DNA of 44,513 nt from the sequence record NC_031113.1; one strand, 5' to 3'. Origin of the DNA: Escherichia phage Gluttony. The position numbers were made by a program, and so were the translations under genes. Shown one piece after another: positions 5,127 to 44,513 of the stretch. The notes under the pieces were generated by a model that was given only the letters and a program-made list of their open reading frames with translations, had not been told where the DNA came from and searched no databases. Within the stretch, counting starts at the first letter, position 1. Every line of letters begins with the position of its first letter.

Positions 5127-5130
5127 ATCT

Positions 5131-5364: not shown

Positions 5365-5392
5365 AAATGGCGGGACAAGCCCGCCGTATTAA

Positions 5393-5566: not shown

Positions 5567-5606
5567 CTCTAAAATCCTCGATATGGCTAACCGGCACACT
5601 ATACCG

Positions 5607-5885
5607 CTATGCGACCAATTCAGCAACCAATAAATCACAGTCGGCTATGCTGTCGATAACGCGAACGTCCGCACCGCGGCGGGCCATTCGCTCATGTTCT
5701 CGTACCTGGTGCGGCTTAGGTTTACCGCCTGGGCGCTTCACTTCGACGAAAACTATCTTGCCGTTGATGATGATAATCAGATCGGGCGCGCCTGCGCGCC
5801 CCTCCCACGCCACTTTACGGCAGAATCCGCCAACCTCTTTAACCCGTTTCATAAGGTGACGCTGCACCTTGCCTTCTGGTGTCAT
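5607..5885 (-). CDS. VRR-NUC domain nuclease
   Basis: VFVEVKRPGGKPKPHQ...E motif; ATG overlaps the upstream stop (ATGA). Confidence 0.7.
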   Translation of the reverse strand: MTPEGKVQRHLMKRVKEVGGFCRKVAWEGRAGAPDLIIIINGKIVFVEVKRPGGKPKPHQVREHERMARRGADVRVIDSIADCDLLVAELVA

Positions 5886-6514: not shown

Positions 6515-6550
6515 TAATGCCCAACGTTTCCGCTAAAAGCAACATTTCCG

Positions 6551-8842
6551 CTACTTGCGGTAGCGATACATGCAATCGCCCTCTGCGGCAAGTGGGAAGC
6601 CTTTCGCCCAAATAGGCAGGTCGCACATCAGCGCGCAAAGCTCCTCTGTCGTGTAGTCGTCGGTGTCCGGCACTTCTGTGATCAATTCATCATGCACCGA
6701 TAGAACGATTTCATAGCCCGCAGCTTCAACGCCAGGCATTGACCAGGCGAGAATATCACGGCACAACGCCTGTACTATGTTCTCCGTCAGTTTGCCGCCG
6801 TAGGTATACTGGAAGCCCCACTGGCGCGTCGTCTGATTCTCGCCCTGATATTTAATGCGGGTGCTGGTGCGTTTCTTGCCGGTATCTTCGTCGATCTCGG
6901 TCGTCACTGACAGCGCAATGCCTGGATAACTCATAATACGCCCCGACGGCAACTCAATTTTCAACCACCACCCCGCGGCGTTCGGGTCGTCGCGTTCCTC
7001 GTCGAAGGTTGGGTCATGCTTCGCCTTCGTGCGGACTATCTTGAGCGCTTTCTTACCATCCGGGCGAACGTTCGCGCCAGCCCAGTACGCTTTGCCAGGA
7101 TTGCGGATTGCACACAACACCGCGTCCTCAAGCTCGGCCCAAAAGGCTACCGTCTTCGGGTGAGCCTCGCGCCACATGCGTTTAATCGCATCACACGTAA
7201 GCCATACGTTTTTCGGCAGTATGTAAGTCGGGCGCTCGTCCTTCTTGCCAGGCTTTGGCGGTCGCTTCGCTTCGTTAATGCGGGCGTACTCATAACCCCG
7301 TTTAGCCGCTGCCCAAATGTGATCGGGGAATGTGCCCTTCATGACGTCCGCCATCGCGTAAAGGTCGAGGCCCAGGTTTTTAGCGAACTGCAAGAACGCC
7401 GCGACGCCGCCACCATAGCCCAGCCCCAATTCGCACGCCTTACCGATCTGGCGTAAGTCCTTGCGGTTAGCTTTAATGTAGTCCGGGTCCAGGCCGAACA
7501 TCTTACCGGCAGTCTCACAATAGATATCGCGACCGGCCTTAAACACCATTAGCGCGGTTTTCTCGCCTGCGATCCAGGCAAGTCCACGCCCTTCCACGTT
7601 GGAGTAGTCCGCTACGACAAACTTCTTGCCCTTAGCCGGGATAATGCACCCGCGAACGGTCGAGGCTGTTAGCTTAGATATGTCATACGCCCAGTGCGCG
7701 GTCCCGCGTAACAGGGAATTGATGCCGTTGGTGAGCATGTGCGACCGGACCCAAAAAGCAACGTCGCTCTCGCCTTCGCGGCGCTTAATCTTCCCTTCGT
7801 GATCGTCGCTATACTCGCCGCGTGCCAGGTTTTGAGGCTGGAAGCCTTTACCCGCCCAGCGCAGCGTGCGCTTTGCACCACCATACTGAAGACACCCACG
7901 GCGGCGACCATCTGCGGATAAGCCGTTAACTAGCGGATTGTACTTAGTCGATGCCGTTGATGACGCTCCGAGGCGCATTTCTATAAGCGCTTTGCCTTCG
8001 TCGGGGAAGTCCGGGTCTTCAAGCAGGTCGTTAAGTGTGGATTTCTGCGCGTTGTGGATCGTGAACGCCGGGGCGATATCACGTAGGATTGGCAGGAAGT
8101 CATTGCCGGTCAGCTTACCGCCAAATCGCTCCCAGGCTTCCTCTTTCAATTCTTCCTTATGCGCCTGTACCGCTTTGATCGCAGCGCGCGCCAGGTCAAC
8201 GTCCACGTAGAAGCCGCGGTCGTTAATCAATTGGTCGATAAGCAGGATTTCGTCTTCCTTCGGCGTATTACCCCAGTCCGGTATGCGCCAATAGACTTCC
8301 CTCATCGCGATGATATCCAGCGCGGCATAGCGCAGGAATTTAGCCCACTCCTCGGGGTGCGTCTTGCGCGTGTAGCGGCGGATTTTGTAGGTCTTAGGGG
8401 TAGGCTTACAGAATCGTTTAATCAGCGCCTTGCCTGCCTTATCCTTCGCGTGCTCTGCGTCAACGCCCAGCACCTGACACTGCATATCGAGGCTACCCGG
8501 CAGCGCGTGCCGAAAGGCCATAATCATGGTATCTTCGATCTGGCTTACCGGCAGATCTATACCCCACTTCTCGCGAATAACAAGGCGGTCAAACAGGAGG
8601 CCGTTAGCCATCACTATTTTTGCTTTCTTGCGGGATACACGGCGGAGTGCCTTGCGCAGTTCACGCGGCATTGTTGGGGATTCAGTGGCATCCCATGTCT
8701 GCACGCGGCCTTCGTCGATGGCGTAGGTGCAAATCATAATCTCGGTGGTTTGGTGCTCTGCGTAGGCGTACGCCCCTACTTTCTTCAGGTCCACCCCGCT
8801 AAATGTCTCGGTGTCGAGAAACAGACGTTCGAAGTCTTTCAT
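6551..8842 (-). CDS. Family A DNA polymerase with 3'-5' exonuclease domain
   Basis: Exo I LDTETFS; motif A DYSNVEGR; motif B RKDLRQIGKACELGLGYGGG; motif C VHDE. Confidence 0.9.
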   Translation of the reverse strand: MKDFERLFLDTETFSGVDLKKVGAYAYAEHQTTEIMICTYAIDEGRVQTWDATESPTMPRELRKALRRVSRKKAKIVMANGLLFDRLVIREKWGIDLPVSQIEDTMIMAFRHALPGSLDMQCQVLGVDAEHAKDKAGKALIKRFCKPTPKTYKIRRYTRKTHPEEWAKFLRYAALDIIAMREVYWRIPDWGNTPKEDEILLIDQLINDRGFYVDVDLARAAIKAVQAHKEELKEEAWERFGGKLTGNDFLPILRDIAPAFTIHNAQKSTLNDLLEDPDFPDEGKALIEMRLGASSTASTKYNPLVNGLSADGRRRGCLQYGGAKRTLRWAGKGFQPQNLARGEYSDDHEGKIKRREGESDVAFWVRSHMLTNGINSLLRGTAHWAYDISKLTASTVRGCIIPAKGKKFVVADYSNVEGRGLAWIAGEKTALMVFKAGRDIYCETAGKMFGLDPDYIKANRKDLRQIGKACELGLGYGGGVAAFLQFAKNLGLDLYAMADVMKGTFPDHIWAAAKRGYEYARINEAKRPPKPGKKDERPTYILPKNVWLTCDAIKRMWREAHPKTVAFWAELEDAVLCAIRNPGKAYWAGANVRPDGKKALKIVRTKAKHDPTFDEERDDPNAAGWWLKIELPSGRIMSYPGIALSVTTEIDEDTGKKRTSTRIKYQGENQTTRQWGFQYTYGGKLTENIVQALCRDILAWSMPGVEAAGYEIVLSVHDELITEVPDTDDYTTEELCALMCDLPIWAKGFPLAAEGDCMYRYRK

Positions 8843-9009
8843 TGCTTTATCCTCACTACGGCGTCAGCGCTGCCGATCATGGAGAAGATGCCGTCTGACA
8901 GGGCAATCTCTTCGCCGTTGTTGCGAATCTCGGCAACTGTGAAATATTCCCCCAGTAGCTTAGACCATACTTTCATTCCGACTTTTACTTCGCTGGCTTT
9001 AATCCGCAT
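8840..9009 (-). CDS. Small hypothetical protein, 56 aa
   Basis: Hand-translated ORF (MRIKASEVKVGMKVW...) with an AGGA RBS; its stop overlaps the polymerase start. Confidence 0.3.
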
Positions 9010-9020
9010 TTTTCATTGTC

Positions 9021-9049
9021 CTATTAAAAAGCCCGCATTAAGCGGGCTT
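9021..9049 (-). terminator. Rho-independent terminator after the SSB-like gene
   Basis: 8-bp GC stem AAGCCCGC/GCGGGCTT followed by a T-run on the minus strand. Confidence 0.6.
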
Positions 9050-9067
9050 GAATAGTGGGCTTTGCCC

Positions 9068-9841
9068 TTAACGGCGGCGACGTTTACGTGGCGCTTCGTC
9101 TTCGTCGTCGTCCTCATCTTCGTCATCGCGTGGTTTACGACGTTTGCGAGGTTTTTCGTCGTCGTCGTCATCGCTGCGCTTGGACTTTTTGGACTTACGC
9201 GGCTTGTCGTCTTCGTCATCGTCATCACGACGTTTTGACTTTTTGGACTTACGCGGGCTTTCATCTTCGTCATCGTCGCCCAGGTCTTCGTCGGAACATG
9301 AAGACCCGCCACCGCCGAAGGCTTCTCCGTCATCGCGGAAGCGCATACCCAGCAGACCACAGCCTAAGCCTTTGCCGTTGGTATTGTTCCAGGCCCAAAT
9401 ATCTAAGGAAACGTTGCAATAGCAACCGGAATAGATTTCCTTCCCTTCGATTTCGTCGCCGTCGATGGTCAGACCCTGCTCCGTCTGCTTCTCGCCTTCG
9501 GAAGTCTGGATGATCGGCTGTTTGAATGATTTGGCATTGATGTACAGCTTTCCTTCAAACTCTTCCGTCACTTCTTCACGCTCGTCACCATCACGAACTG
9601 CACATTCTTTCGAATCCTGTGCGTAGTGGCGGTCCATCCACTTATCGGCGTTCTTTTCAGACTTCAGCTTTTCGGTGAGCACTGCGCGTGCCGCCGCTTC
9701 CACTTTGTCCACCTGCGGATCTTCTTTATCAAGAATAATCACCGCACGATATGCCGGTTTTTGTCCATCCTGTTTAGGGGTGTCACGCTCCCAAATTTTC
9801 GGGAAGCATACACGTACATTTTTCAGGTTGACTTTAGCCAT
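9068..9841 (-). CDS. Phage ssDNA-binding protein (DUF2815-like) with alternating acidic/basic C-terminal repeats
   Basis: MAKVNLKNVRVCFPKIWE N-terminus with GAGGAA RBS; C-terminal DDDEDE/PRKSKKSKR repeats. Confidence 0.55.
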   Translation of the reverse strand: MAKVNLKNVRVCFPKIWERDTPKQDGQKPAYRAVIILDKEDPQVDKVEAAARAVLTEKLKSEKNADKWMDRHYAQDSKECAVRDGDEREEVTEEFEGKLYINAKSFKQPIIQTSEGEKQTEQGLTIDGDEIEGKEIYSGCYCNVSLDIWAWNNTNGKGLGCGLLGMRFRDDGEAFGGGGSSCSDEDLGDDDEDESPRKSKKSKRRDDDDEDDKPRKSKKSKRSDDDDDEKPRKRRKPRDDEDEDDDEDEAPRKRRRR

Positions 9842-9937
9842 TTTCCAATTCCTCATTTCACATGTATCGGGGTTATTAGAAGCCACCCCGTCCGGCTTGG
9901 TTGCTAATGTACTTGGTTGCGTTTCCGCGGTCAAGTG

Positions 9938-10171
9938 TTATTTATTAAAAAGTTTTAAAATCAGGTCGAGATATTTGTGCAGCCACACCAGTGGCGGGCG
10001 GTGCACGTTGTTTTCCATCCAGTTCAAACAGGCTTCGTTATAGCCGTCGTCCCATAAGCGGGATGGGTGGCGAATCATCCAGGCCAGCGCCAGCAGACCG
10101 CCGCAGGTATGTACTACGAATCCCAGTGCCGCCAACGGCAGCACCATAATCATTGCCAGAATCTTATTCAT
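9938..10171 (-). CDS. Small membrane protein
   Basis: Two hydrophobic segments (ILAMIMVLPLAALGFVV, GGLLALAWMI). Confidence 0.4.
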   Translation of the reverse strand: MNKILAMIMVLPLAALGFVVHTCGGLLALAWMIRHPSRLWDDGYNEACLNWMENNVHRPPLVWLHKYLDLILKLFNK

Positions 10172-11594
10172 CGTTTAAATCCTCGTCGCTTGCTTCTTGC
10201 CATTCCGGGCGCGGGTCGTCAACTGGTGCCAGGACTGGTTTCGCAGGTGCACGCGTGATTTTATCTTGCAGCTTCGCCCACACTTTCGGTTTCTCATCCT
10301 TCAGCACCTTCTCGGCATCAGTAGGGCTGATTAATGATTCCTTGTACATCAGGTCGCGCTTGATCCGGGCCGTTGTGAATACAGCGATAACTTCGCTTTC
10401 ATCCTTCCACTTACGCGCACCTTCACGACCTGCTACCAGCTTCAGGCCCAGCGCTTCGCCGTCACCGGCTAACACTGCTTTGAATACGGCAGCCTCGATC
10501 GCTTTGATGTGCTGGCGCATGGTTTCCAGACCGTCGTAAGCCTTTTTCAATTCTTCCGTGGTCATTGCACCGGCTGGCGCTTCTTTCTCGCCACGCTTCG
10601 CACGTCGGGCCGCTTTCCGGGCTTCGCGGGCCATGTTCCGGTCGTGGTTTTTGCATTCTTCCTCGGTGGCAATGCTTACATCGTCGCCCAGGTCTTCGTC
10701 GGTTGCCGTTGGTGGCGTCATTGTGTCGATGGCGGCTTTAGCGCGGGCACTACATTGATCCGCAAATCGACACCACTGACACGCATCGGCGCTCGGACGG
10801 AAGTCTGCACGGGTGAGATTCTTCTTACCCTTAGCGAAGGCATCCAGGGCGGCTACTGCGCGTTTTGCTGCGTACTTGGCGAAGATTTCCAGTGCTTCCA
10901 CTGAAATATCCCACTCCGATGCGCCGCCGCAATACGGCTGGAAGATGACCAGGCGAACGGTGGTAATGTCGTACATCTTTTGCAGCTTGCGCAGCAGACC
11001 GAGCGCATACAGCATAAGCTGTTTGTTCTCTTTCGCCTCGACCTTATGGCGTCCGGTCTTCAGGTCGCCAACAATCAGCATGTACGTGCCGTCGGTCTTC
11101 TTCATGACCATAACCATATCGGCAGTACCGAAGGTTTTAATCACCTCGCCGTCAATCTCGTAGCCTTTGTGCAGGACGCGTGTCAGATCCGCGCGCATCT
11201 CGAGCTGAACAAACTCCGCCACTTCGAGGAGCGGTCGCCAGTGGTCGATGTACGCGTCGCACTGTTTCACCATATCGTCGTTGACCAGTACGCCGCCTTT
11301 CGGTGCTTTCGGGTGTGCCTTTACTGGCCCCTTTCCTTCGTTCTCGACGTAACACCCTTTATACGTCTTTGCGGTTATCAGCTTTTCACCGGCGATAATG
11401 CGGTTTAGCACGACTTCAGATACGGTGTGCATACTCGTACCGTTAATCGCGGCTTGCCCGGATTCGTTTGGGATATCTTTTTCTACCACCAGAGCGGCAG
11501 GGCAACCCATCCATTTTTTAGCACCGGACGGCCCGAGTAATGAGTGTTCGGTATTGCTACCGGATTGCGTCTTACGTTTTGGTTTAATCGCCAT
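10164..11594 (-). CDS. PD-(D/E)XK (RecB/Cas4-like) exonuclease with Cys cluster and C-terminal extension
   Basis: GTADMVMV, IVGDLKTG, QLMLYA motifs; CQWCRFADQC cluster. Confidence 0.65.
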   Translation of the reverse strand: MAIKPKRKTQSGSNTEHSLLGPSGAKKWMGCPAALVVEKDIPNESGQAAINGTSMHTVSEVVLNRIIAGEKLITAKTYKGCYVENEGKGPVKAHPKAPKGGVLVNDDMVKQCDAYIDHWRPLLEVAEFVQLEMRADLTRVLHKGYEIDGEVIKTFGTADMVMVMKKTDGTYMLIVGDLKTGRHKVEAKENKQLMLYALGLLRKLQKMYDITTVRLVIFQPYCGGASEWDISVEALEIFAKYAAKRAVAALDAFAKGKKNLTRADFRPSADACQWCRFADQCSARAKAAIDTMTPPTATDEDLGDDVSIATEEECKNHDRNMAREARKAARRAKRGEKEAPAGAMTTEELKKAYDGLETMRQHIKAIEAAVFKAVLAGDGEALGLKLVAGREGARKWKDESEVIAVFTTARIKRDLMYKESLISPTDAEKVLKDEKPKVWAKLQDKITRAPAKPVLAPVDDPRPEWQEASDEDLNDE

Positions 11595-11773
11595 TATTCC
11601 ACCCTTGTAAACTGGACAATTACATATTTCACATTAGCCAGGCCCGCTTTTTCGACTCGGCGCTTAACTTCATTTTGCGCGTCCACAAAGCAATTGCTTG
11701 CGTTGGTGTTTTCAACAATAAAAGAAGTGTGATCGTTTAATTCGTGGCAAGTTGCCATGACGAAGAATTTCAT
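11594..11773 (-). CDS. Small hypothetical protein, 59 aa
   Basis: ORF with GGGAGA RBS; start overlaps upstream stop (TAATG). Confidence 0.35.
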   Translation of the reverse strand: MKFFVMATCHELNDHTSFIVENTNASNCFVDAQNEVKRRVEKAGLANVKYVIVQFTRVE

Positions 11774-12024
11774 TATTTTGTCTCCCAGCGGTCGATTGTT
11801 TTTGCTTCGGATGCAACTGCGAAGCGAACATATTCCAGATTTGAATCCGCCCAAATATAAAAGTCGGGATTAATAAAGGTGGTGCGCTTAATTTGCGCGG
11901 GGGTGTTGCGGCGTTTGTCTATTACGGCAACGCGTGACTGAAAGCTGCCGATGCGTTCGAATAGCCAATAGTACGGGCGCTGGTCGCGGGAATCCACCGC
12001 CTCGATTAGCGTGAATCGTGCCAT
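11773..12024 (-). CDS. Hypothetical protein, 83 aa
   Basis: ORF track. Confidence 0.4.
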   Translation of the reverse strand: MARFTLIEAVDSRDQRPYYWLFERIGSFQSRVAVIDKRRNTPAQIKRTTFINPDFYIWADSNLEYVRFAVASEAKTIDRWETK

Positions 12025-12035
12025 TGTCTCGTCCT

Positions 12036-12065
12036 CTAAAAATAGGCCCGCAGATTAGCGGGCCG
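12036..12065 (-). terminator. Rho-independent terminator after the first leftward early gene
   Basis: GGCCCGC/GCGGGCC stem followed by TATTTTT on the minus strand. Confidence 0.55.
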
Positions 12066-12072
12066 GATAATA

Positions 12073-12579
12073 TTAATCTTCCAGTTCGAAATAAGTTTCG
12101 ACGATTTCTTTTAGCTCTTTGTGGAAGTCTTCGACGTCGTCATCTTCCAGCTTAGCGATTGATTTGATTTCGAACGCGTCCAGCAGATCATCAAATTCGT
12201 CGTTCGCGTCGTCGTCATCACCGCCCGCGATAATCGCGGCATACTGTTTGATCTCGTCGCGCATCTCCGCCAGCGGATCGGCATCTTTCTTGCCTTTGCC
12301 CTTCGCCGGTGCTTTTTTAGACTTAGCCGGTTTTGCGTCTTCGGCGTCTTCGTCGTCATCTTCGACTACTTCTTTTTTAGCCTTACCTTTCGCCGGGGCT
12401 TTTTTAGATTTAGCCGGTTTTTCGTCTTCGTCGTCATCTTCGACAACTTCTTTTTTGGCCTTAGACGGCTTCTTGTCTTCCTGCTTACCAACGGCAGCGC
12501 CAACGGTTTCATAATGCTTAGCGATGACTTCCAGTGCTACTACGCCGCGAGTGATCAGGTTTACGATTTGCTCAAACAT
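12073..12579 (-). CDS. Highly charged tandem-repeat protein, first gene of the leftward early operon
   Basis: Start at MFEQIV with GGAG RBS; two copies of KKEVVEDDDEDEKPAKSKKAPAKGK; polyacidic C-terminus. Confidence 0.6.
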   Translation of the reverse strand: MFEQIVNLITRGVVALEVIAKHYETVGAAVGKQEDKKPSKAKKEVVEDDDEDEKPAKSKKAPAKGKAKKEVVEDDDEDAEDAKPAKSKKAPAKGKGKKDADPLAEMRDEIKQYAAIIAGGDDDDANDEFDDLLDAFEIKSIAKLEDDDVEDFHKELKEIVETYFELED

Positions 12580-12775
12580 GGTATATCTCCGATTGGTTAA
12601 GTTTAGGTGTCGGCAGTTAACTTCGTCGGTGGCCTTAACATATTGCCAGGTTACGCGTTCTCCCGTTCGGGTAGTGGACCTGGTTATATAATCACGGTTG
12701 GGAATCCTGACACTTCGATCCGGCCCCTGCGTTGCCCCTCTCCAGTTTGCGTCCTGCATCCTGTCGACGGAGTGA

Positions 12776-12981: not shown

Positions 12982-13311
12982 ATGAATATCAAAGAAGCAA
13001 TTGAAGTGTTATCTAATGCAATCCGCGGCGAAGCGGGTAAATCCTGGTATTACACAAATGCGGTGGATACTCTGTTATTTGAAGTGTCCAGATTATCGCG
13101 TGCTGAGAAGGAGCTTACCGCGAAGCTGGAATTGCTCAACGGCACGGCAGCAAGCAAGCTGCAAAAACACAATGAAGAAATGGAAGAATACAAAAAACAG
13201 GTTATCCGTCTACGTGAGGAAGGTAAATCCTGGGCGATGATTGCCGAGTTGACCGGAATTAATCAGAGCACAGTGCGCTCCTGGGTACGCAATAATAAAA
13301 CTTCTAAGTAA
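12982..13311 (+). CDS. HTH DNA-binding protein, putative transcriptional regulator
   Basis: C-terminal KSWAMIAELTGINQSTVRSWV helix-turn-helix; coiled-coil middle. Confidence 0.5.
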   Translation: MNIKEAIEVLSNAIRGEAGKSWYYTNAVDTLLFEVSRLSRAEKELTAKLELLNGTAASKLQKHNEEMEEYKKQVIRLREEGKSWAMIAELTGINQSTVRSWVRNNKTSK

Positions 13312-13321: not shown

Positions 13322-15586
13322 ATGAGCTTAATTAAATTCGCTGTAACAAGACCCGCTAAAAAAGGCGAAAAAGCCAGGGCGGAAAACTTCCAGATGACGA
13401 CCGATGAATTTTTCGAATTTATCAAAGATGCGAAAGAGATATCGTCGGTGCATATCAACAAGACGGAAGATAAAGCCGAGTATGCGCGCCGCAAGCGTAA
13501 GGCCGATGGCATCGTAGCGTATACCAGTGACGGCTTACGCCGCAAGACCAGTGCGGTGGACCGCTCGATCCTGTTCTTCGATATTGACCGTACCGACACC
13601 CGCACCCTACGCCGCTGCCGTAAGGCTTTCATCGACGCGGGGCTGGAGCACGTATTTCACACCACAACCGGCGACCGCCACCCGCTGAAAGGCGGCACGC
13701 GTTGCGCTCGTTTCCTGGTGCTCACCGACAAGCCTGTACCGGCTGAAGACCTGGGCCGCGTCCAGTACGCACTATTACACCAACTGGGCCTGTCAGATGT
13801 GGACTTCGATGATTGTACGAAAGACACAAACCGCCTGATGTACCTGCCACACCAGCAGTCTGTTATTAAGTGCCACTACGGCAAGCGTGCCCGCGTCCGT
13901 CGTCTGCTTCGCCTGGCGGATAAGTTGGGCGTGGAGAAGGAGGAAGTACGCCGCGAGCTTACCCAGGGCGACGACGCAGTGGCAGACGGCATTCTGGACT
14001 GGTGCTTCCAGGCAGGATTCGAGGAGTTATCTTCCGGTCGCGGTTATGAAGTGCCGTGCCCGAACGAACATCTGCACAGCGGCGAAGGGTCGACGGCTAT
14101 CATGGTCAAGGATGGCGAGATCCGTTTCAAGTGTATGCACACCGGCAACGAGTGTTGCTCGGAACTGAACAGACACCAGCACCTGGCGCTACGTCTTATC
14201 GGGATCCCGGACCACCTGAACGTCGAGCCGCACAACATGTCACGTAAGCAAATCGCCGCCATCCTTCCGGGACTGGACGATGAGGAAGTGGAATCGTGCT
14301 ATGAACATATCGTTGATGCGGTCGGAGACGGCGACGAGTACGGCGTGTGTACTGATGCAGACCTGGACAACGAGCCGGTCGCACTGTTCAGTAAGCACGA
14401 CCCGATCATCGAAGGCCTGGTCAACTTCAAATCGACCTGGTATCTCGCCGGTGAGTCGAACATTGGCAAGTCGTTCTACGTGCTGGGCCAGATGGCGTCA
14501 GTATCTGCCGGTATTCCGTTCGGCGGTGCGAAGGTCGTCCAGTCTCATTGCTTCTATTTCGATGCGGAAGGTGGTGAGGCCTCCAACCAGCGTAAAGAAG
14601 CACTGCAGATCAAATATGAGCACGACCTGGACAAGCTGCACATTATCGATCTGCAATCACGCGGCTGGGATATCACCAGCAAATCCGGCTTGCGTGAAGT
14701 TATCAGCTTCATCAACCGCACCGCTAACGGCGAGCCGGTTGGCCTGGTGGCGTTCGACTCACTCAACCAGACTGTTGCGCTGCGGTCCGCCGATGCAAAA
14801 CCGTTCGACGAGAATAACGCCAGCGATATGGGTGAAGTGGTCAAAGCGCTGAAGGCCATTGCGGAAAATACAGGCGGCAGTGCGGGCGTCATCCACCACC
14901 CGGCGAAGGGTGCAAACGGCAGCAGATCTCCCCGTGGGTCCGGCGCGCTGCATGGCGCTGTCGATTCTGCGTTCTTCCTGGAACAGCCGGACGACAACCA
15001 GCCAGGTCAACTCAACCTGTATCACGAAAAATCCCGTAACGGCATCAAGCAAGCGCCGCGCGGCTTCGTCCTGCTCAAGTGCAAGGTTAAGGTGGATCTC
15101 CGCAAGTCCGAGGCGTTCGAAGCCCACCAGTCCACCAGCACCGGGCCGGACTTCGGTGACGTCGTTGCCGGTTGGGACGTCAAGCCGATTGCCTCCACGC
15201 CACGCGACGAGACTCTTTACCTCGTACCGGTCGCCCTGGCACCGTTCGCCATTGAGCAGGCAAAGGCCGCTGGCAAGGCCGCAGTTAAGGAAGAGAACGC
15301 CGCAGGACCGCGCAACGAAAAAGAGAAAGTGCTTTATGCAGCGCTGGAAAAACTGATGGAAGATAACCCGGACCATACCGGATTCAGCAAATCGGCAATT
15401 GTCCGCCAGGCTGGGCTTGCGAAAGGTGGCACATCGACGAAGGCAATTGACGATATGGTCGAGCGCGGCGTGCTCGGTTTTTATACCGATCCGCACACCG
15501 GGGCCATCTATGGGTCGTCGAATATCGTCATCAAAACGAAGATACCCATCACGCTTTCGGCGACCGATGACGACTTAAAAGATTAA
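13322..15586 (+). CDS. Primase-polymerase (AEP-like) fused to a RecA/DnaB-like ATPase; replication initiator candidate
   Basis: FFDIDRTD acidic motif, Cys/His zinc cluster, Walker A GESNIGKS, Walker B FYFDAEGG. Confidence 0.7.
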   Translation: MSLIKFAVTRPAKKGEKARAENFQMTTDEFFEFIKDAKEISSVHINKTEDKAEYARRKRKADGIVAYTSDGLRRKTSAVDRSILFFDIDRTDTRTLRRCRKAFIDAGLEHVFHTTTGDRHPLKGGTRCARFLVLTDKPVPAEDLGRVQYALLHQLGLSDVDFDDCTKDTNRLMYLPHQQSVIKCHYGKRARVRRLLRLADKLGVEKEEVRRELTQGDDAVADGILDWCFQAGFEELSSGRGYEVPCPNEHLHSGEGSTAIMVKDGEIRFKCMHTGNECCSELNRHQHLALRLIGIPDHLNVEPHNMSRKQIAAILPGLDDEEVESCYEHIVDAVGDGDEYGVCTDADLDNEPVALFSKHDPIIEGLVNFKSTWYLAGESNIGKSFYVLGQMASVSAGIPFGGAKVVQSHCFYFDAEGGEASNQRKEALQIKYEHDLDKLHIIDLQSRGWDITSKSGLREVISFINRTANGEPVGLVAFDSLNQTVALRSADAKPFDENNASDMGEVVKALKAIAENTGGSAGVIHHPAKGANGSRSPRGSGALHGAVDSAFFLEQPDDNQPGQLNLYHEKSRNGIKQAPRGFVLLKCKVKVDLRKSEAFEAHQSTSTGPDFGDVVAGWDVKPIASTPRDETLYLVPVALAPFAIEQAKAAGKAAVKEENAAGPRNEKEKVLYAALEKLMEDNPDHTGFSKSAIVRQAGLAKGGTSTKAIDDMVERGVLGFYTDPHTGAIYGSSNIVIKTKIPITLSATDDDLKD

Positions 15587-15700: not shown

Positions 15701-15744
15701 AGTGTGAATATAGTGAATAGTTATGCAGTTTTATTGCATAAAGT

Positions 15745-15902
15745 AAGCGGGACAAAAAGCGGGACAAACAAGGGGCGGGACAAAGCGGGACAGCACCCCC
15801 GTCCCGCCACGGATGGCGCGGCTTCCAGAGGAGCGGGACAGCGGGACAGCACCCCAGTCTTTCAGACTAGACGGGGGTCAATGGCCCCCCTCGTCTGAGA
15901 CT
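15745..15902. repeat. GCGGGACA iteron-like array A with 3' hairpin module; putative origin or regulatory cassette
   Basis: At least six GCGGGACA copies at about 11-bp spacing, then CAGTCTTTCAGACTAGACGGGGG...CCCCCCTCGTCTGAGACTG; near-identical to 31965..32124. Confidence 0.6.
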
Positions 15903-16062
15903 GAATAAAATCCGGGGATTGCAAAATACACGGCAGCATGATGCTAAGTGCGGTCGTCGATGAACTAGGCAACCAATGCAGGTTGTATTATGCTGAGTGA
16001 AAATGCGGTTTGCAGTCACAGCAGATAGCGATCAACTTTTTCATGCGCGTGATTAATATTGG

Positions 16063-20292: not shown

Positions 20293-20421
20293 CGGCAACC
20301 AGTAATCCTCCCAGCCTGCCGATTTGGTGGGCTTTTTTGTGCCTGTTATAATCCCCTCAGATGGCAGGGCCGTCTCTTATGTTGCCGATGGTCGGCGCAT
20401 ATGCACAAAAGGGCTTATATC

Positions 20422-31116: not shown

Positions 31117-31493
31117 TGGAGAATACTACAATGGCTAAAGCACCACTCTTCACTCTTGACCCTAAGCCGACCTTTAAGCTGCCGATTGAGATCCCGCGCC
31201 CTGGTGAGAACGAACCCGGCAAGATGACGTTTACCGTCCGTCACCGCCCGATCGACGAATTTTCGCAGACCATGCAGGACACCGAACGCAAGCTGTCGGA
31301 ATATGACGACAATGACCCGGACGGCTTTAACGTTATGGTCGAGGCCATCATGCACGTCGCAGAAGGCTGGAATCTGCCAGACGAATTTAACGCGGAGAAC
31401 GTCCGCCGCCTGGTGGTCAACTATCCTCGCGCGTTCGGTGTGTTCCATACGTCGTACTATCTCGAACTGATGGGCTTGCGTGAAAAAAACTAA
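31116..31493 (+). CDS. Tail assembly chaperone (lambda gpG-like)
   Basis: 125 aa, acidic, position before the tape measure; ends just after a slippery heptamer. Confidence 0.75.
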   Translation: MENTTMAKAPLFTLDPKPTFKLPIEIPRPGENEPGKMTFTVRHRPIDEFSQTMQDTERKLSEYDDNDPDGFNVMVEAIMHVAEGWNLPDEFNAENVRRLVVNYPRAFGVFHTSYYLELMGLREKN

Positions 31494-31810
31494 TTGAGGC
31501 GGCGCGACGCTTTTATGGCCCGCCGCCACCCTCCGAAGATTTAGCCGCAAGTTTATGGGGTGCGTCCCCCGAAGATGTTTGTCCGCCTGTTGCGTTATGG
31601 CCTGACAACGCGAAGATAGTCGCAGTATTCACGGATTGTGCCACGCAATGGCGCACCGGATTTGGTGGCGCATACGGCATCGATTACGGCGTGCTGGAGT
31701 GGTTATTTAAGATGCACGGTATCGAAAACGAGCAGCGCGCGTTTAAAGATATCAAGCTAATGGAACGAATCGCGCTTGATGAAATGGCGCAGCAGAACCA
31801 CGCACAGTGA
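31116..31810 (+). CDS. Tail assembly chaperone frameshift product (gpGT-like) via programmed -1 frameshift at 31484..31490
   Basis: Slippery A_AAA_AAC in the 0 frame; the -1 frame is open for 106 codons from 31490 to the TGA at 31808..31810. Confidence 0.7.
31484..31490 (+). other. Programmed -1 ribosomal frameshift slippery heptamer A_AAA_AAC
   Basis: Codons gaA AAA AAC TAA; fits the X_XXY_YYZ pattern. Confidence 0.7.
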
Positions 31811-32124
31811 AGCGGGACAAAGCGGGATGTCCCGTTTTGTCCCGCCTCTGTAAAACTGCATATCTAATCACTCCCATTGCATAAACCAAAAGAGGGACAG
31901 GCGGGACGTCCCGTTTTGTCCCACCCCATAAATGTGCATATCTATTCGCATTTCGTGCATAAAACAAACGGGACAAAAAGCGGGACAGACCAGGGGCGGG
32001 ACAAAGCGGGACAGCACCCCGTCCCCGCCAGTGCTGCCGCTGGTTTCAGCCGATCGGGACAGCGGGACAGCACCCCAGTCTTTCAGACTAGACGGGGGTC
32101 TGGCACCCCCCTCGTCTGAGACTG
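31811..32124. repeat. GGGACA iteron-like array B with palindromic units and the same 3' hairpin module as array A
   Basis: About 14 GGGACA copies including palindromes GGGACAAAGCGGGA-TG-TCCCGTTTTGTCCC; 32055..32124 near-identical to 15833..15902. Confidence 0.65.
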
Positions 32125-32192
32125 CATAGGGTTTGTTTGAAATTCGCTGATACAATGTCAATCGGCAACTGAATAAAAAAGGGGACTGCATA

Positions 32193-34835
32193 ATGGCAGA
32201 TCAGGCAGCAGGCATCACGCTAAAGGCGGATGTTGCACAAATCAGAACGGCGAATACTGTGCTTGATTCATTCGCACAGAAATCCGAGAACACAGAAAAC
32301 AAGGTTAAGAAATTAAACGACACCCTCGGCAAATCCAAAAAGGTGACGAGTGACGCCGCGGGCGGAATGGAGAAGCTGGCGACTGAATCGCAGCGCGCTG
32401 CCGATGGCATGACGAAACAGGAGCGACTTGCCAACAGGTTAGGCATGTCGACCAAAAACCTGGGCTTTGCCTCGCGTAACGCCGCATTCCAGTTACAGGA
32501 TATCGCAGTTACGCTTGAGATGGGGATGCCGGTACACCGCGTTATGCTTCAGCAGTTACCGCAGTTAACTGGGGCGTTCGGGGGATTGGGTAACACGCTG
32601 CGTTATGTGGCGGGATTCCTCGGCCCAGTAGGGATCGGCATTGCCGCACTAACGGCAACGTTAGGCGTCGGCGTGGCAGTTACGACCCGAGCAGAAAACC
32701 AGGTCGCAGCGCTTAACAAGACGCTGGCGCTGTCGGGTAACATTTCCGGCCTCACCGCTAACCAGATCCTTGTGCTGTCTGAGAACGCTGAGCGCATGGG
32801 CTGGTCATTCCGCAAGACGCGAGACACCATTCAGGCACTGGCGGCGGCGGGCGTTAAAGCGGGTGCGGACTTCGGCGCGCTGGCGAAAGTGGTGAATGAC
32901 TTTGCGAAGGCGTCTAATCAGCCGATCTCTGACGTGGTTGAATCCATCTCAAAATTGTCGAACGACCCGGTCGGTGGACTGCGCGCACTGGCGGACCAGT
33001 ATCACGTCGTTACCGAGGCGCAGATCCAGCAGGTGCAATCACTAGTGACGGCTGGTCGAGAAACCGAAGCGGTGGCGCTGGCGAACAAAACCGCCGCTGC
33101 GTCGTTCTCCAGCATGACCAATGAGATCAAGTCCAACATGGGTACGCTCGAGCGGTCTATGAACGTCGTCACATCTGCAGCCAAATCCATGTGGGACGCC
33201 ATCCTGGATGTAGGACGCGCGCAGTCATCGAATGAGTCCGAGATGAAAGCGCGTGAATCCTTGCAGCGCATGACCACGGCTTACTATGCCGAGATGAAAG
33301 CGGTAAACGCTGCCGGTGGGGTGATGACCGAGGCGCAGAAAGCGCGTATTAACATGCTTTACAGCGAACTGGTCGCCCAGGAAAAGGTGGTGGCGTCGCT
33401 CACCCTGCGCAACCGCGCCGAGCGAGACAACGCCAGCGCCGCTGACGAAGCAGCAAAGGCGAACGAGGAGGCAAACCGCACCGCCCGCGACCGCGCCGCG
33501 TTTGAGAAGGAGTACGCAACCAACGCGAAGCGGCGAGCCGACGAGATCGCCCGCCTCAATTTGCTGAATAAGCGCGGTGTTATTAACGAGAAAGAACTAG
33601 CCGAGGCGGTGAAGCAGGTCAACGAGCGCTACAAAGACCCAGCACCGAAAAAGGCGGCGGCAATTCGAGTCGATGCCGGGCTGAAAATGCTGGAAGTCGC
33701 GCGAAGCGAATTAGCCCAGCTTCGTGAGTCTGGAAAGCAGATCGAAGCCAACGCATCGACGCAGACCCGCACGCAACGCGCGCAAGCGGCCCTTAACAAG
33801 CTGATCGCGGACCATGAACAGTTAATCGCGGCGAGCAAAGAAAGGGCGCTGACGGCAGCAGAAAAGCAGCAAATGGCGGAGTTCGAGTCGGTTAAATCGG
33901 TACGCGAGCAGATCGTCGAAGAAGCCAAATTGCTGGACGCGAAAGAGAAGCAGATCAAGGCACACGCCCAGGTCGAAGCATTCATCAAGAACCAGAACGC
34001 CGAGCTAAAAGCCACCGCGGCGGGCTATGCGCTTTCTACTCGCGAAGCGGCTAACCTGCGCGAAGAGTTGCAGCTAATTGACCGCCTTCAGCGTGCCGGT
34101 GCTAACGATACTGATATTGACAAGGCGGTGTATAAGCTGCGTGAGGTTCAGGAAGCACAGACCGGTGCTAACGCCTCATTATGGGATGGATTCAGTCGCG
34201 GGCTTCGCGATAGTGTGGATGAAATGGGTAACGGATACACGCAGATGTCGTCACTCACAAAATTCACGTTCGGTGCTATGCAGGACACGATGAACGAGTT
34301 TTTCGAGACTGGCAAGCTGAACGCAAAAGATATGGTTAAGTCCATTCTGAGCGAATTAATAAAGCTGGCTACCTCGCAGGCGTTCAAGTCCATCGTTAGC
34401 GCTTTCGGTGGCGACGGCGGCAAAAACGGATTGTTCGGCGCTATCTTCTCGGGCCTCACTAAGAATGCGGACGGCGGAGCGTACACCGGAGGCAATCTCG
34501 CGGCCTATTCGGGGCAAGTGGTGAGCCAGCCTACCTTTTTCAGTTATGGCGTCCAGGCGTTCGCTAAGGGCGCTGGGTTGATGGGTGAGGCTGGACCCGA
34601 GGCCATCATGCCACTGAAGCGCGGGCCGGACGGGAAACTGGGCGTTGCCGCGTCTGGCGCAGGCGGTGGTATGGTCGTGACGACTAACGTTTACACGGGG
34701 ACCGGTAAGACGGATACCAGTGTTGGCGGGCCGGACCCACGTACCGCGCAGGCGTTCGGCAAGCAAATCACCGAGGCGGTGAAGGCCGAGATCGTGAAGG
34801 CGATGAAACCGGGTGGTGTACTTTACAAACGATGA
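32193..34835 (+). CDS. Tape measure protein
   Basis: 880 aa, Ala-rich with coiled-coil regions, downstream of the chaperone pair. Confidence 0.85.
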   Translation: MADQAAGITLKADVAQIRTANTVLDSFAQKSENTENKVKKLNDTLGKSKKVTSDAAGGMEKLATESQRAADGMTKQERLANRLGMSTKNLGFASRNAAFQLQDIAVTLEMGMPVHRVMLQQLPQLTGAFGGLGNTLRYVAGFLGPVGIGIAALTATLGVGVAVTTRAENQVAALNKTLALSGNISGLTANQILVLSENAERMGWSFRKTRDTIQALAAAGVKAGADFGALAKVVNDFAKASNQPISDVVESISKLSNDPVGGLRALADQYHVVTEAQIQQVQSLVTAGRETEAVALANKTAAASFSSMTNEIKSNMGTLERSMNVVTSAAKSMWDAILDVGRAQSSNESEMKARESLQRMTTAYYAEMKAVNAAGGVMTEAQKARINMLYSELVAQEKVVASLTLRNRAERDNASAADEAAKANEEANRTARDRAAFEKEYATNAKRRADEIARLNLLNKRGVINEKELAEAVKQVNERYKDPAPKKAAAIRVDAGLKMLEVARSELAQLRESGKQIEANASTQTRTQRAQAALNKLIADHEQLIAASKERALTAAEKQQMAEFESVKSVREQIVEEAKLLDAKEKQIKAHAQVEAFIKNQNAELKATAAGYALSTREAANLREELQLIDRLQRAGANDTDIDKAVYKLREVQEAQTGANASLWDGFSRGLRDSVDEMGNGYTQMSSLTKFTFGAMQDTMNEFFETGKLNAKDMVKSILSELIKLATSQAFKSIVSAFGGDGGKNGLFGAIFSGLTKNADGGAYTGGNLAAYSGQVVSQPTFFSYGVQAFAKGAGLMGEAGPEAIMPLKRGPDGKLGVAASGAGGGMVVTTNVYTGTGKTDTSVGGPDPRTAQAFGKQITEAVKAEIVKAMKPGGVLYKR

Positions 34836-34869: not shown

Positions 34870-35469
34870 ATGTCACAAGGTACAATCACACTAACGAAAG
34901 GAAGTAAGACCGTCACGGGCGCGGGAACGGCGTTCCTTAGCGAGATCGGGAAGGTACTCGTATTCGCCCGCATCGACGGCAACGACTACACCGGCAAAAT
35001 TGCGGCATTCAACTCGAACACGGTCATTACTCTGAAAGATAACTGGGCTGGGCCAACGAAATCCGGTGCGGCATATGAGCTAATCGAAGCACACGACCCG
35101 CGATCAAACGAATGGCCATATTACTGGCACATGCAATTGCAGGGCGGTGGCGACGTGCAGTTAGCTTTCCGGTCGGAGGAATTGCAATTCGGTAATGGCT
35201 ACGGACAGAACATCGCGGACGGCCCGAACGCCGAAACGAAACAGTTCCCCGTGCAATTCGTCGGGCTGACTACGGACAAATGGTGCAATCCTAAACTGGT
35301 TTACAACTTCCTTCGCGGTCACTTCGTAAAACCGTTTGTCGTCACCGCGCCGGATGGCGAAACAGGTTTATTCGTGGTCGAGCGTTCGAGCTTGTCGTAC
35401 ACGGACAACGGGCACTACACGGCAACGGTATCCGCCACCCTTAAGACTGCTATTGGATTCGTAAGATGA
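34870..35469 (+). CDS. Minor tail protein with lambda gpM-like C-terminal domain and a fibre-like N-terminal extension
   Basis: QFGNGYGQ resembles lambda M RFGDGYSQ as recalled; N-terminal ~70 aa resemble the tail fibre N-terminus. Confidence 0.65.
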   Translation: MSQGTITLTKGSKTVTGAGTAFLSEIGKVLVFARIDGNDYTGKIAAFNSNTVITLKDNWAGPTKSGAAYELIEAHDPRSNEWPYYWHMQLQGGGDVQLAFRSEELQFGNGYGQNIADGPNAETKQFPVQFVGLTTDKWCNPKLVYNFLRGHFVKPFVVTAPDGETGLFVVERSSLSYTDNGHYTATVSATLKTAIGFVR

Positions 35470-44157: not shown

Positions 44158-44513
44158 GTTTGAGTTTTCCCAGTCCATTTTGCGCCGCACCAGCGGGCTT
44201 TCGTAATATTCCTTTCCTTCCACTTCCACCAAAGGCCAGTCGTTCACAATCACGTATGGCTCCGCGATATCCTCAATCACGCCGTGCGCGCTTTGCGGCC
44301 CTAACGACACACCAACCAGGATAACACCGGCAACGCGACGGGTCAGATATTCGCGAGCGCAACGTGCCTCAACCAGCCCACGACGGATGCCGCTGGTGGC
44401 CTTAACCTCGTAGGTCCATACGGCATCGATCACATGCTCGCGGAAGTCGGGACCGGACTTCACCTTGCGCTTGCCTACCATGATAATATCGCCGCGGTCT
44501 ATGGTATTGGCAC
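44155..44513 (-). CDS. 3' part of the same wrap-around gene (44387..44513 duplicates 1..127)
   Basis: ORF track 44155..44481; the Met at 44481 has no RBS and the frame stays open upstream in the other repeat copy. Confidence 0.5.
   Translation of the reverse strand, partial: ANTIDRGDIIMVGKRKVKSGPDFREHVIDAVWTYEVKATSGIRRGLVEARCAREYLTRRVAGVILVGVSLGPQSAHGVIEDIAEPYVIVNDWPLVEVEGKEYYESPLVRRKMDWENSN
44387..44513. repeat. Second copy of the 127-bp terminal direct repeat
   Basis: Identical to 1..127. Confidence 0.9.

Follow-up and report, generated by a model that had tools for sequence, protein, structure and literature searches.

The repeat block between the tail chaperone and tape-measure genes

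The window analysed here is the whole 44,513-nt sequence of Escherichia phage Gluttony (NC_031113.1), a complete Dhillonvirus genome that is 100% identical to those of Lust and Pride across the regions compared. The stop codon of the tail chaperone frameshift product lies at 31808–31810 and the tape-measure gene starts at 32193, so the non-coding gap between them covers 31811–32192, or 382 bp, in agreement with the interval of about 380 bp that an earlier note, made from the letters alone, had placed between the G/GT and tape-measure genes. The gap contains 15 GGGAC sites, two palindromes, TGCATA boxes and a 49-nt hairpin. The block is not ordinary coding sequence in relatives, among which one-base indels break every ORF in it. 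Its features and borders are as follows:

31131–31493, plus strand: tail assembly chaperone G (Pfam Phage_TAC_4, E = 1.4e-23), which together with T forms the left border of the cassette
ending with TGA at 31808–31810, plus strand: T, the −1 frameshift extension of G (Pfam DUF1799, E = 1.1e-20 for 31496–31807)
31812–31845, unstranded: palindrome 1, four repeat half-sites GCGGGACAAAGCGGGA / TGTCCCGTTTTGTCCCGC (DNA fold −17.3 kcal/mol, z = −7.4)
31857–31884, plus strand: first TGCATA box pair TGCATATCTAATC...TTGCATAAA, kept in 7 distinct Dhillonvirus tail blocks
31894–31922, unstranded: palindrome 2, GGGACAGGCGGGAC / GTCCCGTTTTGTCCC (fold z = −2.8)
31935–31962, plus strand: second TGCATA box pair, where HK578 has GTGAATAGTTATGCAG, like the primase block
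31968–32013, plus strand: four direct (G)CGGGACA repeats with start-to-start distances of 12, 16 and 10 bp, near-invariant in 21 distinct copies
32020–32029, minus strand: inverted repeat copy CGTCCCCGCC; the primase block (at 15801) and other lineages likewise have an inverted copy at the equivalent place
32028–32053, unstranded: variable spacer with the small hairpin CCAGTG CTGC CGCTGG, the place of the AT-rich box TGATTTATAAGGAG in other lineages
32054–32069, plus strand: two direct GGGACA repeats 8 bp apart (9 bp in some relatives, with the motif kept)
32076–32124, unstranded: long imperfect hairpin CAGTCTTTCAGACTAGACGGGGG...CCCCCCTCGTCTGAGACTG (DNA fold −12.9 kcal/mol, z = −3.75)
32148–32156, plus strand: candidate extended −10 promoter TGATACAAT, 37 bp before the tape-measure ATG, a consensus match only
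32193–34835, plus strand: tape-measure protein gene (Pfam TMP_2, E = 3e-43), the right border of the cassette

Exact GGGACA occurs 22 times in the window, with 11 copies at 31814–32069, six at 15749–15848 and five elsewhere. This total is at chance level (22 observed versus 18 expected), and the departure from chance is the clustering: two blocks that together measure less than 400 bp contain 17 of the 22 GGGACA copies as well as 14 of the 16 exact GCGGGAC copies. The shorter GGGAC is found 56 times genome-wide (15 in the tail gap, 7 in the primase gap), and six of the 29 TGCATA copies fall within the tail gap. The count of roughly 14 GGGACA(A/G) motifs given in the earlier note was thus right, and the palindromes, TGCATA boxes and closing hairpin module that it described were all found, the palindromes and the hairpin with the fold z-scores listed above.

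The core module comprises six direct and one inverted GCGGGACA, to which the tail copy adds eight half-sites. Across 21 distinct copies the repeat columns are better conserved than the remainder (0.93 versus 0.85). In relatives, a one-base indel between two repeats retains the motif and not the register, which favours a reader of the motif over a fixed base-pairing scheme. The long hairpin is stable in both of its copies (none of 200 shuffles folds as well as either), and among Dhillonviruses its stems are invariant and its loop variable, while the inner stem covaries by lineage from GGGGG/CCCCC to GGGTG/CACCC to GGGAG/CTCCC. The structure of the middle hairpin is not conserved among relatives.

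The primase-side copy and its distribution among relatives

The second block directly follows the primase-helicase gene, and the features of this region are:

13322–15586, plus strand: primase-helicase, the candidate repeat reader, with a DxD-type primase-like motif (by eye), a zinc-finger-like segment and a RepA-type AAA_25 core
15713–15741, unstranded: GTGAATAGTTATGCA box of the primase block, containing an inverted repeat with the 7-bp arms TTATGCA and TGCATAA on either side of a 7-nt spacer
15747–15848, plus strand: primase-block array, composed of four direct GCGGGACA (15747–15792), one inverted copy (15801–15807), a variable spacer and two direct copies (15833–15848)
15855–15903, unstranded: primase-block copy of the long hairpin (DNA fold −12.7 kcal/mol, z = −4.34)
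16018–16019, plus strand: probable packaging (pac) terminus, at which the records of UDS3lw, Zar3M, PEC9, PTXU06 and Pandora71 all begin

By aligning 15713–15907 with 31934–32128 we obtained 83% identity over 195 nt, and BLAST of the tail against the primase block gave 86.6% over 171 nt, with the differences concentrated in the middle spacer and the hairpin loop. The near-duplicate of the earlier note is therefore real and about 170 bp long, although its wording, that the last ~160 bp are almost identical, was somewhat overstated at 83–87%. The sequence supports its description of the block as a probable protein-binding type of non-coding repeat array that is duplicated after the primase-helicase gene, and also its view that such a near-copy at the chaperone/tape-measure junction is unusual.

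The module, tail block included, was found in 157 of 157 Dhillonvirus records, and no block is present at the junction in L031, Serratia phage Smarc3 or Salmonella phage VSiA. The statement that G/GT normally abuts the tape-measure gene hence holds for these three and not for the Dhillonvirus-like clade, in which the block is universal. The GenBank record of Sodalis phage SO-1 already annotates the two blocks, as repeat regions A and B that are similar to each other; what is new is the switching of the repeat between lineages, the matched change of both copies, the exclusion of a small helix-turn-helix protein as the binder, and a predicted helicase winged helix with residues that track the repeat class.

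In seven lineages belonging to at least three genera, the cassette stands directly after the primase-helicase stop codon and shares one layout, that is, a box, about four direct repeats, one inverted repeat, a spacer, two direct repeats and hairpins. Within this conserved layout the repeated 7–9-mer varies by lineage (GCGGGACA, GTGTGGCA, GTGTGCCA, GGTGCCA, GGGGGAGA, TTCCGCACA and GGGGATC), as expected of the repeat cluster of an iteron-type origin. In relatives the AT-rich TGATTTATAAGGAG lies between the repeat groups; the Dhillonvirus spacer is GC-rich and variable, and AT-rich stretches flank the module. GTGAATAGTTAT occurs twice in VSiA at the relative position of the GTGAATAGTTATGCA box.

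Where a tail copy is present, it repeats the same motif as the primase copy of its own phage. This was seen in three lineages, including L022 and L028 on a single contig (GGGAC in both) and L024 and L029 in a single sample (GTGTGGCA in both). This match within lineages suggests that one sequence-specific factor reads both copies, and a concerted change of the repeats is the prediction for what would be two cis sites under one trans factor. The tail copies of L028 and L029 are accompanied by reverse-strand moron ORFs and a terminator, and in relatives an intrinsic terminator and a ATTGGTTGC box precede the tail copy. We also observed partial tandem duplications and swapping of segments between copies, which mark the sequence as recombinogenic. 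Many contigs stop inside the repeat pair, where short-read assemblies break, and the repeat cassette draws spurious gene calls.

Candidate reader proteins

At the C-terminus of the primase-helicase, a winged helix is predicted at about residues 665–740 (nt 15314–15541), followed by an acidic tail. The match is at the fold level only (Foldseek E-values of 0.018 or weaker), and the best PDB sequence match of the protein is RepA 1g8y at E = 0.47. Homologues were collected with the full-length protein, as a search with the C-terminal 155 residues gave one fragment. Among the variable columns of residues 600–754, 8 of 109 are fixed in eight GGGAC-class helicases and absent from four others, compared with 1 of the 347 in front of residue 600 (p = 6e-5 by Fisher's test for the contrast). 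Residues 690–691, at the start of helix 2, are KS, RR, AR or KA across four classes, and position 704 holds T in helicases of the GGGAC class and S in those of the other classes; helix 3, predicted to be the recognition helix, itself varies inside the GGGAC class. The association of the winged helix with the repeat class could be plain linkage, because the 3' end of the gene adjoins the first cassette and recombination would carry both.

The small helix-turn-helix protein encoded at 12982–13311, which the earlier note had offered as a possible binder, was rejected because phages of four repeat classes encode it with the same recognition helix while the repeat changes by lineage. The acidic 168–228-aa product of the first gene of the leftward operon was likewise discarded, being low-complexity and conserved across classes. 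Sites for PhoB, DnaA, IHF and sigma-54 were compared by eye with consensus sequences, and neither spacing nor sequence fits. Among the lineages compared, the helix-turn-helix of the small terminase (TerS) is identical in two GGGAC lineages (VGVAC-YRW) and differs in the more distant GGGGATC, GGGGGAGA and TTCCGCACA lineages. For TerS of the GTGGCA lineage, an IMG/VR pattern scan gave unrelated contigs only, and two metagenome scans gave nothing or GGGAC-class phages.

Proposed paired origin sites and competing readings

Our best explanation, tentatively held though quite possible, is by analogy: the two blocks may be an iteron-type origin and a second origin-like copy, in the style of SPP1 oriL/oriR or P4 ori/crr. 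Bacillus phage SPP1 is, like the phage studied here, a lytic siphovirus of ~44 kb with headful packaging and two similar non-coding cassettes of direct repeats with an AT-rich or variable region. [quoted passage not shown] The same arrangement is found in the window, with one cassette in the replication module and the other among the late structural genes, where it breaks the gene order in the company of transcription signals and, in relatives, morons. In SPP1 one protein, gp38, binds both cassettes (PMC6316719), whereas here a shared reader is suggested by the matching repeats. The systems differ further in that oriL is inside gene 38 and its binder is a separate initiator that needs the loader gp39 and the DnaB-type helicase gp40, while here the candidate binding domain belongs to the primase-helicase itself, with no evident loader; the SPP1 repeats are unrelated in sequence, and the second copy here sits at the tail chaperone/tape-measure junction. 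No gp38-like or gp39-like protein was found among the proteins scanned, so that the likeness to SPP1 is one of arrangement and not of homology to gp38, gp39 or gp40. The replication module of the window encodes a family-A polymerase, a DUF2800 nuclease, an Enc34/gp2.5-type single-strand-binding protein, an SNF2 helicase and the AAA_25 primase-helicase.

The comparison with P4 ori/crr, already drawn in the earlier note, proved apt. In both systems an octamer in direct and inverted orientation is found at two loci several kb apart, one of which adjoins the gene for a multidomain primase-helicase, here with a predicted C-terminal winged helix. P4 alpha combines in a single polypeptide a primase, a hexameric helicase and a C-terminal winged-helix origin-binding domain. 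Its helicase belongs to superfamily 3 and its primase motif is EGYATA, in contrast to the RepA/DnaB-like helicase (Pfam AAA_25) and the primase-like N-terminus with a DxD motif seen here. We detected no sequence relationship to P4 alpha, no alpha domain is among the fold matches of the primase-helicase, and the P4 ori/crr–alpha system is thus an analogue and not a homologue. The oriV of the IncQ plasmid RSF1010 contains iterons, GC-rich and AT-rich segments, and hairpins that are the primase entry sites ssiA and ssiB. It resembles the cassettes in its iterons, conserved hairpins and RepA-type helicase (for the last, compare the weak 1g8y match at E = 0.47), and differs from them in its three separate proteins (RepC, RepA and RepB'), its 20-bp iterons, its hairpins acting on opposite strands and its single oriV with no second copy.

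For these paired sites we propose that one lineage-specific DNA-binding protein would read both copies of a single cis-acting cassette, the likeliest reader being the C-terminal winged-helix domain of a hexameric primase-helicase whose gene closely precedes the first copy. The winged helices would bind the six direct and one inverted GCGGGACA and thereby assemble the helicase on the cassette, the spacer (AT-rich in relatives) and the adjoining conserved hairpin would serve as the entry or priming point, and genome replication would then fall to the family-A DNA polymerase, the gp2.5-like single-strand-binding protein and the fused primase. Since all related genera examined possess the copy that follows the primase-helicase gene, this copy is probably the ancestral and primary origin. 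The tail copy would be a later duplicate that gene conversion has homogenised with the first. Its role may be that of a second origin or, when bound, of an enhancer of initiation or a fork-stalling site, in line with the proposals for SPP1 oriR and P4 crr.

Counting against an origin are the lack of an obvious AT-rich unwinding element in the Dhillonvirus spacer, the same orientation of both copies relative to transcription, which an origin does not need, and the packaging terminus just 116 bp from the first cassette. Cumulative GC skew tracks gene orientation, with a minimum near 13 kb, and locates no origin. In the literature searched, we found no experimental definition of a Dhillonvirus origin or pac site.

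Because of that terminus, 116 bp downstream of the first block, a serious though doubtful rival is that the repeats are binding sites of oligomeric TerS directing cleavage nearby, with the tail copy as a TerS site that has no cleavage site. At least five independent Dhillonvirus records begin exactly at window position 16019, 116 bp 3' of the first cassette, and UDS3lw is reported to package by the headful mechanism from a preferred pac site (PMC13348001). The record of Smarc3 places its pac site in the homologous intergenic region, 23 nt after GTGAAAATG; the Dhillonvirus terminus lies 25 nt after GTGAAAATG, a 9-mer shared with Smarc3. The pattern of TerS helix-turn-helix identity described above also agrees with this reading. 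P1 pac consists of hexamer arrays, four plus two repeats flanking a spacer, which the four plus two repeats of the cassette resemble, and the headful pac sites of P1 and of SPP1 (pacL/pacR) similarly have groups of short repeats flanking a spacer near a defined terminus. Known pac sites, however, occur once per genome and usually in or beside terS, whereas here the terminus precedes terS by 4.4 kb and no terminus accompanies the second array: a reproducible terminus is seen at the primase block only. The tail copy is without a counterpart of the conserved GATC-containing cleavage region, and record starts near it share no common base but are dispersed, as if the assemblies had broken at the repeat. 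Moreover, in classes A, A', B and C the repeat has switched and the surroundings of the terminus are still similar (GATC..CGATCGCAC), which argues that the terminase signal may be that element and not the repeats. We know of no phage that maintains a pair of complete terminase-binding arrays separated by 16 kb. The window contains no exact match to the EE09 'cos' sequence ATCTTAAGGG, and the sole one-mismatch match, at 35438–35447, is far from both blocks.

It is unlikely, in our estimate, that the cassette is transcriptional or post-transcriptional punctuation, in which an operator array bound by a regulator, an RNA hairpin (either a barrier resembling a terminator or a site of RNase III-type processing) and an internal promoter would set the amount of downstream message, for the late genes after the primase-helicase at one copy and for the tape-measure and distal tail genes at the other. 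Both copies do lie in the same orientation between cistrons of a long plus-strand transcription unit, an operon with many intrinsic terminators, and the 49-nt hairpin, with ~19 bp and internal loops, has the size of an RNase III substrate. Also in keeping with such a role are the candidate promoter TGATACAAT, unchanged in 7 tail blocks, after the tail copy, and the terminator and box preceding it in relatives. The annotators of HK578 labelled the homologue of palindrome 1 'terminator', yet no U-tract follows that palindrome. The same is true of all the hairpins, after which come CTCTGTAAAA and GCATAGGG/AATAAAAT, and consensus scans for sigma-70 promoters and intrinsic terminators gave none inside either cassette. 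Rfam 15 returned zero gathering-score matches over the whole window and only chance-level matches at E up to 10 for 31700–32300, and RNA folding of the whole module reaches a z of only −2.0 to −2.3. Neither a processing site nor a terminator would need 7–15 copies of a lineage-specific octamer.

A coupled replication–packaging device built from the two cassettes is a quite unlikely extension of these ideas. The hexameric primase-helicase, through its six winged helices, would bind and synapse both arrays across 16 kb; the copy beside the pac terminus would fire as an origin, and the tail copy, as a protein-bound fork barrier or second loading site, would turn theta replication into concatemer synthesis. 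Packaging from the pac site at 16019 would thereby be timed to freshly made concatemers, and fast octamer switching would define replication-incompatibility ('hetero-origin') groups among co-infecting virulent phages.

We consider it very unlikely that the primase-block sequence was copied into a permissive intergenic hot spot to leave a selfish or neutral tail block with no function of its own. The chaperone/tape-measure junction of relatives takes morons, L031, Smarc3 and VSiA have no block there, and the duplications and segment swaps noted above point to recombinogenic sequence. Against this, none of the 157 Dhillonvirus records has lost the tail block, it also persists in three more divergent lineages with repeats matching their own primase copies, its repeats and hairpin stems are the best conserved parts, and 380 bp without selection should decay or vanish from a size-limited headful genome.

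A structured non-coding RNA, whether a CsrA-type sponge titrating an RNA-binding protein with GGGA/GGA motifs or a cis antitermination RNA like HK022 put (which has two sites per genome, putL and putR), is highly improbable: both copies are transcribed in the sense orientation, there are two per genome and many repeats contain GGA, some in hairpin loops (GCGGGAUGUCCCG), but other lineages use GTGGCA, GTGCCA or TTCCGCACA, all without GGA, the middle hairpin is not structurally conserved, Rfam gives no match to the module, and the indel pattern preserves the motif and not pairing. The idea of G-rich R-loops is weakened in the same way as the sponge, since the repeats of other lineages are without GGA or G-runs.

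Dhillonviruses are common on E. coli, with 157 records in the collection, and count several model phages of the BASEL set as well as SECphi18 among their members. If the paired-origin reading is true, then for this large group of phages, in which a T7-like replisome is combined with the use of host RNA polymerase, it would supply the origin and its initiator domain together with a second origin-like site. The four octamers found among phages with 66–76% identical helicases would then be a ready-made specificity code for a winged helix, and the matched change of loci so far apart would clearly exemplify the co-evolution of cis and trans elements in a virulent phage. Should the cassette be a terminase site instead, it would represent an unusual pac organisation, far from terS. 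For phage engineering, the repeat pair is a sequence to be deliberately avoided or preserved.

Two repeat blocks and their genome context

With its -1 frame extension (DUF1799, E = 1e-20), chaperone gene G (Phage_TAC_4) reaches to 31810, and the 382-bp gap to the tape-measure gene is occupied by a non-coding repeat block (the tail block); a similar block (the primase block) lies 3' of the primase-helicase gene. The features needed here are as follows.

12982-13311, plus strand: 109-aa helix-turn-helix protein
13322-15586, plus strand: 754-aa primase-helicase
16018-16019: likely preferred pac terminus
20344-20352, plus strand, intergenic: TGNTAYAAT match just upstream of terS
31811-32192: tail block
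32148-32156, plus strand, intergenic: TGNTAYAAT match just upstream of the tape-measure gene
32193-34835, plus strand: tape-measure gene (TMP_2)

Every element that the earlier note had listed from the sequence was present in the window. GGGACA occurs 22 times (11 in the tail gap, 6 in the primase block and 5 elsewhere), 14 of the 16 GCGGGAC copies fall within the two blocks, and the tail and primase gaps hold 15 and 7 of the 56 GGGAC copies. The two tail-gap palindromes gave fold z values of -7.4 and -2.8, and the two copies of a 49-nt terminal hairpin -3.75 and -4.34. The note had called the blocks almost identical, which overstates a genuine similarity: their common module has 83% identity over 195 nt, or 86.6% over 171 nt, with the differences concentrated in the middle spacer and the hairpin loop. 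The two TGNTAYAAT (extended -10) matches, the only ones in the window, are each preceded by a hairpin or terminator and may be internal late promoters.

We found the module in 157/157 Dhillonvirus records of the phage collection, usually as two copies. Both blocks appear as repeat_region features in the RefSeq entry for Sodalis phage SO-1, where region A separates gp16 from the tape-measure gene and region B comes after the helicase-primase gene; its note describes the repeats as direct, inverted and palindromic and region A as similar in sequence to region B. The HK578 record annotates the first palindrome as a terminator. The raw observation is already on record, but without explanation, and a literature search found no paper analysing the blocks. 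In an alignment of Dhillonvirus blocks (7 distinct tail, 11 distinct primase), the GCGGGACA repeats and hairpin stems were nearly invariant; the spacers varied, as did the middle hairpin and the hairpin loop. Mean column identity was 0.93 at repeat positions versus 0.85 elsewhere (21 distinct copies). Where one extra base separates the last two repeats (GGGACAGCGGGACA versus GGGACAAGCGGGACA), the motif is kept and its register shifts. Because segments typical of one block occur in the other, and because SM_S22 and UDS3lw carry partial tandem duplications of the core module (loci L019 39469-39748; L034 about 395-650), the two copies exchange sequence. Many assembled contigs start or stop within the module (metagenome loci L046, L049, L058, L060, L063 and L065), and the repeat pair therefore breaks short-read assemblies. 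The cassette is a real, strongly conserved and duplicated, putatively protein-binding element.

The record is a complete, circularly permuted Dhillonvirus genome, in which two queried regions match Escherichia phages Lust and Pride at 100% and 99.9% identity. Bases 1-127 recur without mismatch at 44387-44513, a 127-bp terminal direct repeat that most probably arose as an overlap when the permuted genome was assembled. Among the minus-strand genes at 387-12759 are those for a family-A DNA polymerase, an Enc34/gp2.5-type single-strand-binding protein, a DUF2800 nuclease, an SNF2 helicase and methyltransferases. The plus-strand series, which diverges from a control region around 12.8-13.0 kb, runs through the 109-aa protein, the primase-helicase, small ORFs, lysis and terminase genes to the head and tail genes. 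Direct repeats rich in GTC/GTCATC on the plus strand (9097-9279 and 12114-12475) fall within two minus-strand genes, that of the single-strand-binding protein and the first one of the leftward operon, where they encode low-complexity Asp/Glu-rich and Lys-rich tracts; the true start of that first gene appears to be Met61 of a 228-aa ORF. The 9-mer A(A/T)CGGCA(A/G)C occurs 42 times versus 2.2 expected from dinucleotide shuffles (e.g. at 32161-32169, 16183, 20291 and 41990). This phage, SO-1, HK578, Serratia phage Smarc3 and VSiA each carry ~100 copies of CGGCA(A/G)C, which lie on either strand and in several frames, an abundance that may partly reflect codon and amino-acid usage.

Lineage-specific repeats at both loci

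Through primase-helicase homologues at 66-70% and 44-48% identity we reached contigs and phage genomes whose sequence directly 3' of this gene is arranged as it is here: a GTGAATAGTTATGCA-type box, some four direct repeats and an inverted one, a spacer, two direct repeats, a small 5-bp hairpin and a large GC-rich hairpin. The layout is constant and the repeat sequence depends on the lineage, and the large hairpin shows covarying changes in its inner stem (GGGGG/CCCCC to GGGTG/CACCC to GGGAG/CTCCC). The box TGATTTATAAGGAG in the spacer between the two repeat groups, perhaps an unwinding element or the site of a host factor, is kept in L024, L025, L026 and L032 (TGATTTATAAGGAA in L032) despite their different repeats; Dhillonvirus has a GC-rich variable hairpin in its place.

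Table. Cassette repeat by lineage (L-numbers are loci of related phages or contigs)
Dhillonvirus, L022, L027: GCGGGACA
L023, L024: GTGTGGCA
L025: GTGTGCCA
L026: GGTGCCA
L032: GGGGATC, inverted pairs
Salmonella Cornellvirus VSiA: GGGGGAGA; 5/7 genome copies at the post-primase region
Serratia phage Smarc3: TTCCGCACA; 4/6 copies at the post-primase region

The chaperone/tape-measure junctions of relatives were reached via major tail protein homologues. Tail cassettes there consisted of GGGAC repeats in L028 (same contig as L022), GTGTGGCA repeats in L029 (same sample as L024) and GGGTGCCA repeats in L030, and the L028 and L029 junctions also carried reverse-strand moron ORFs, an intrinsic terminator and a ATTGGTTGC box. 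Since a tail cassette was absent from this junction in L031, Smarc3 and VSiA, and present with a matching repeat in the others, the post-primase copy is ancestral and universal and the tail copy a later acquisition, with both held to one specificity. Matching repeats at both loci are what two cis-acting targets of a single sequence-specific trans factor should show. In Smarc3, 10436-10465 hold an inverted second pair of its own repeat (TTCCGCACA...TGTGCGGAA) in the late region, between head-morphogenesis and spanin genes, and a second late-gene site may therefore have evolved repeatedly.

Candidate reader of the repeats

The 109-aa protein, with its sigma-70 region 4 / HTH_23-type motif, had been suggested as a repeat binder. 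Its helix-turn-helix (GKSWAMIAExTGINxSTVRSWVRN) is unchanged in all four closely related repeat classes while the repeat differs, and we therefore excluded it. A better candidate target for this protein is the ATTGGTTGC box (27 matches with <=1 mismatch versus 12 expected), which is enriched in intergenic regions, indeed nearly always intergenic, mostly paired and conserved in all related lineages, and is possibly a phage-specific promoter element read by this sigma-70-region-4-like protein.

ATTGGTTGC box, window positions: 991, 1002, 2664, 2681, 5611, 5623, 12783, 15598, 15652, 15687, 15969, 16058, 16089, 16623, 26213, 26227, 42328

The C-terminal ~100 residues of the primase-helicase form a winged helix in the AlphaFold2 model (pLDDT 77), for which Foldseek returned MarR, histone H1, ORC2 and LexA domains (probability 0.9-1.0, weak E-values). 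Columns fixed in all eight GGGAC-class primase-helicases and absent from the other four classes made up 8/109 variable columns after residue 600 versus 1/347 before (p = 6e-5); helix 2 starts with KS, RR, AR or KA across four repeat classes, and at residue 704 the GGGAC class has T where the others have S. The case for this predicted winged helix as the repeat reader is suggestive, not decisive: because the 3' end of the gene adjoins the first cassette, winged-helix residues and repeat class could be inherited together.

Probable packaging terminus and possible functions

At least five independent Dhillonvirus GenBank records from different laboratories (UDS3lw, Zar3M, PEC9, PTXU06 and Pandora71) start at window 16019 (CAGCAGATAGCGATC...). 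This shared start points to a preferred intergenic pac terminus 3' of the primase-helicase gene, 116 bp downstream of the first cassette and 4.4 kb upstream of terS. Headful packaging has been reported for UDS3lw, with a preferred pac site (PMC13348001), and for Opt-212 (PMC9022532), and the Smarc3 record places a pac site in the homologous intergenic stretch, about as far beyond the GTGAAAATG common to both. The 60 bp around 16018-16019 (context 15990-16060) are nearly invariant and include GATC sites; a gene for a Dam methylase lies elsewhere in the genome (1672-2157).

Our preferred reading, offered tentatively, is an origin and a second origin-like site, with the winged helix of the primase-helicase as their reader. 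Analogues include P4 ori/crr with its alpha protein and IncQ oriV with RepA, RepB' and RepC; for IncQ, the only detectable link to window proteins is the RepA-type AAA_25 helicase core of the primase-helicase. [quoted passage not shown] The window proteins scanned are not homologous to gp38 or to P4 alpha.

A less likely but serious rival is that the arrays are terminase recognition sites: the nearby terminus and a TerS (small terminase) helix-turn-helix identical in two GGGAC lineages and different in three more distant ones speak for this, but the tail copy has neither the conserved cleavage-region sequence nor a common record start, and GATC..CGATCGCAC around the terminus stays similar in lineages with switched repeats. 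Somewhat less likely again is transcriptional punctuation or a regulatory cassette, since a generic terminator is hard to reconcile with a tail copy that matches its lineage's primase-copy repeat. A neutral insertion is improbable, given tail and primase copies held to one repeat specificity, and a structured non-coding RNA more so, lineage-matched switching in both copies being hard to square with a GGA-based RNA sponge. The function of the cassette can be tested directly in widely used model phages.
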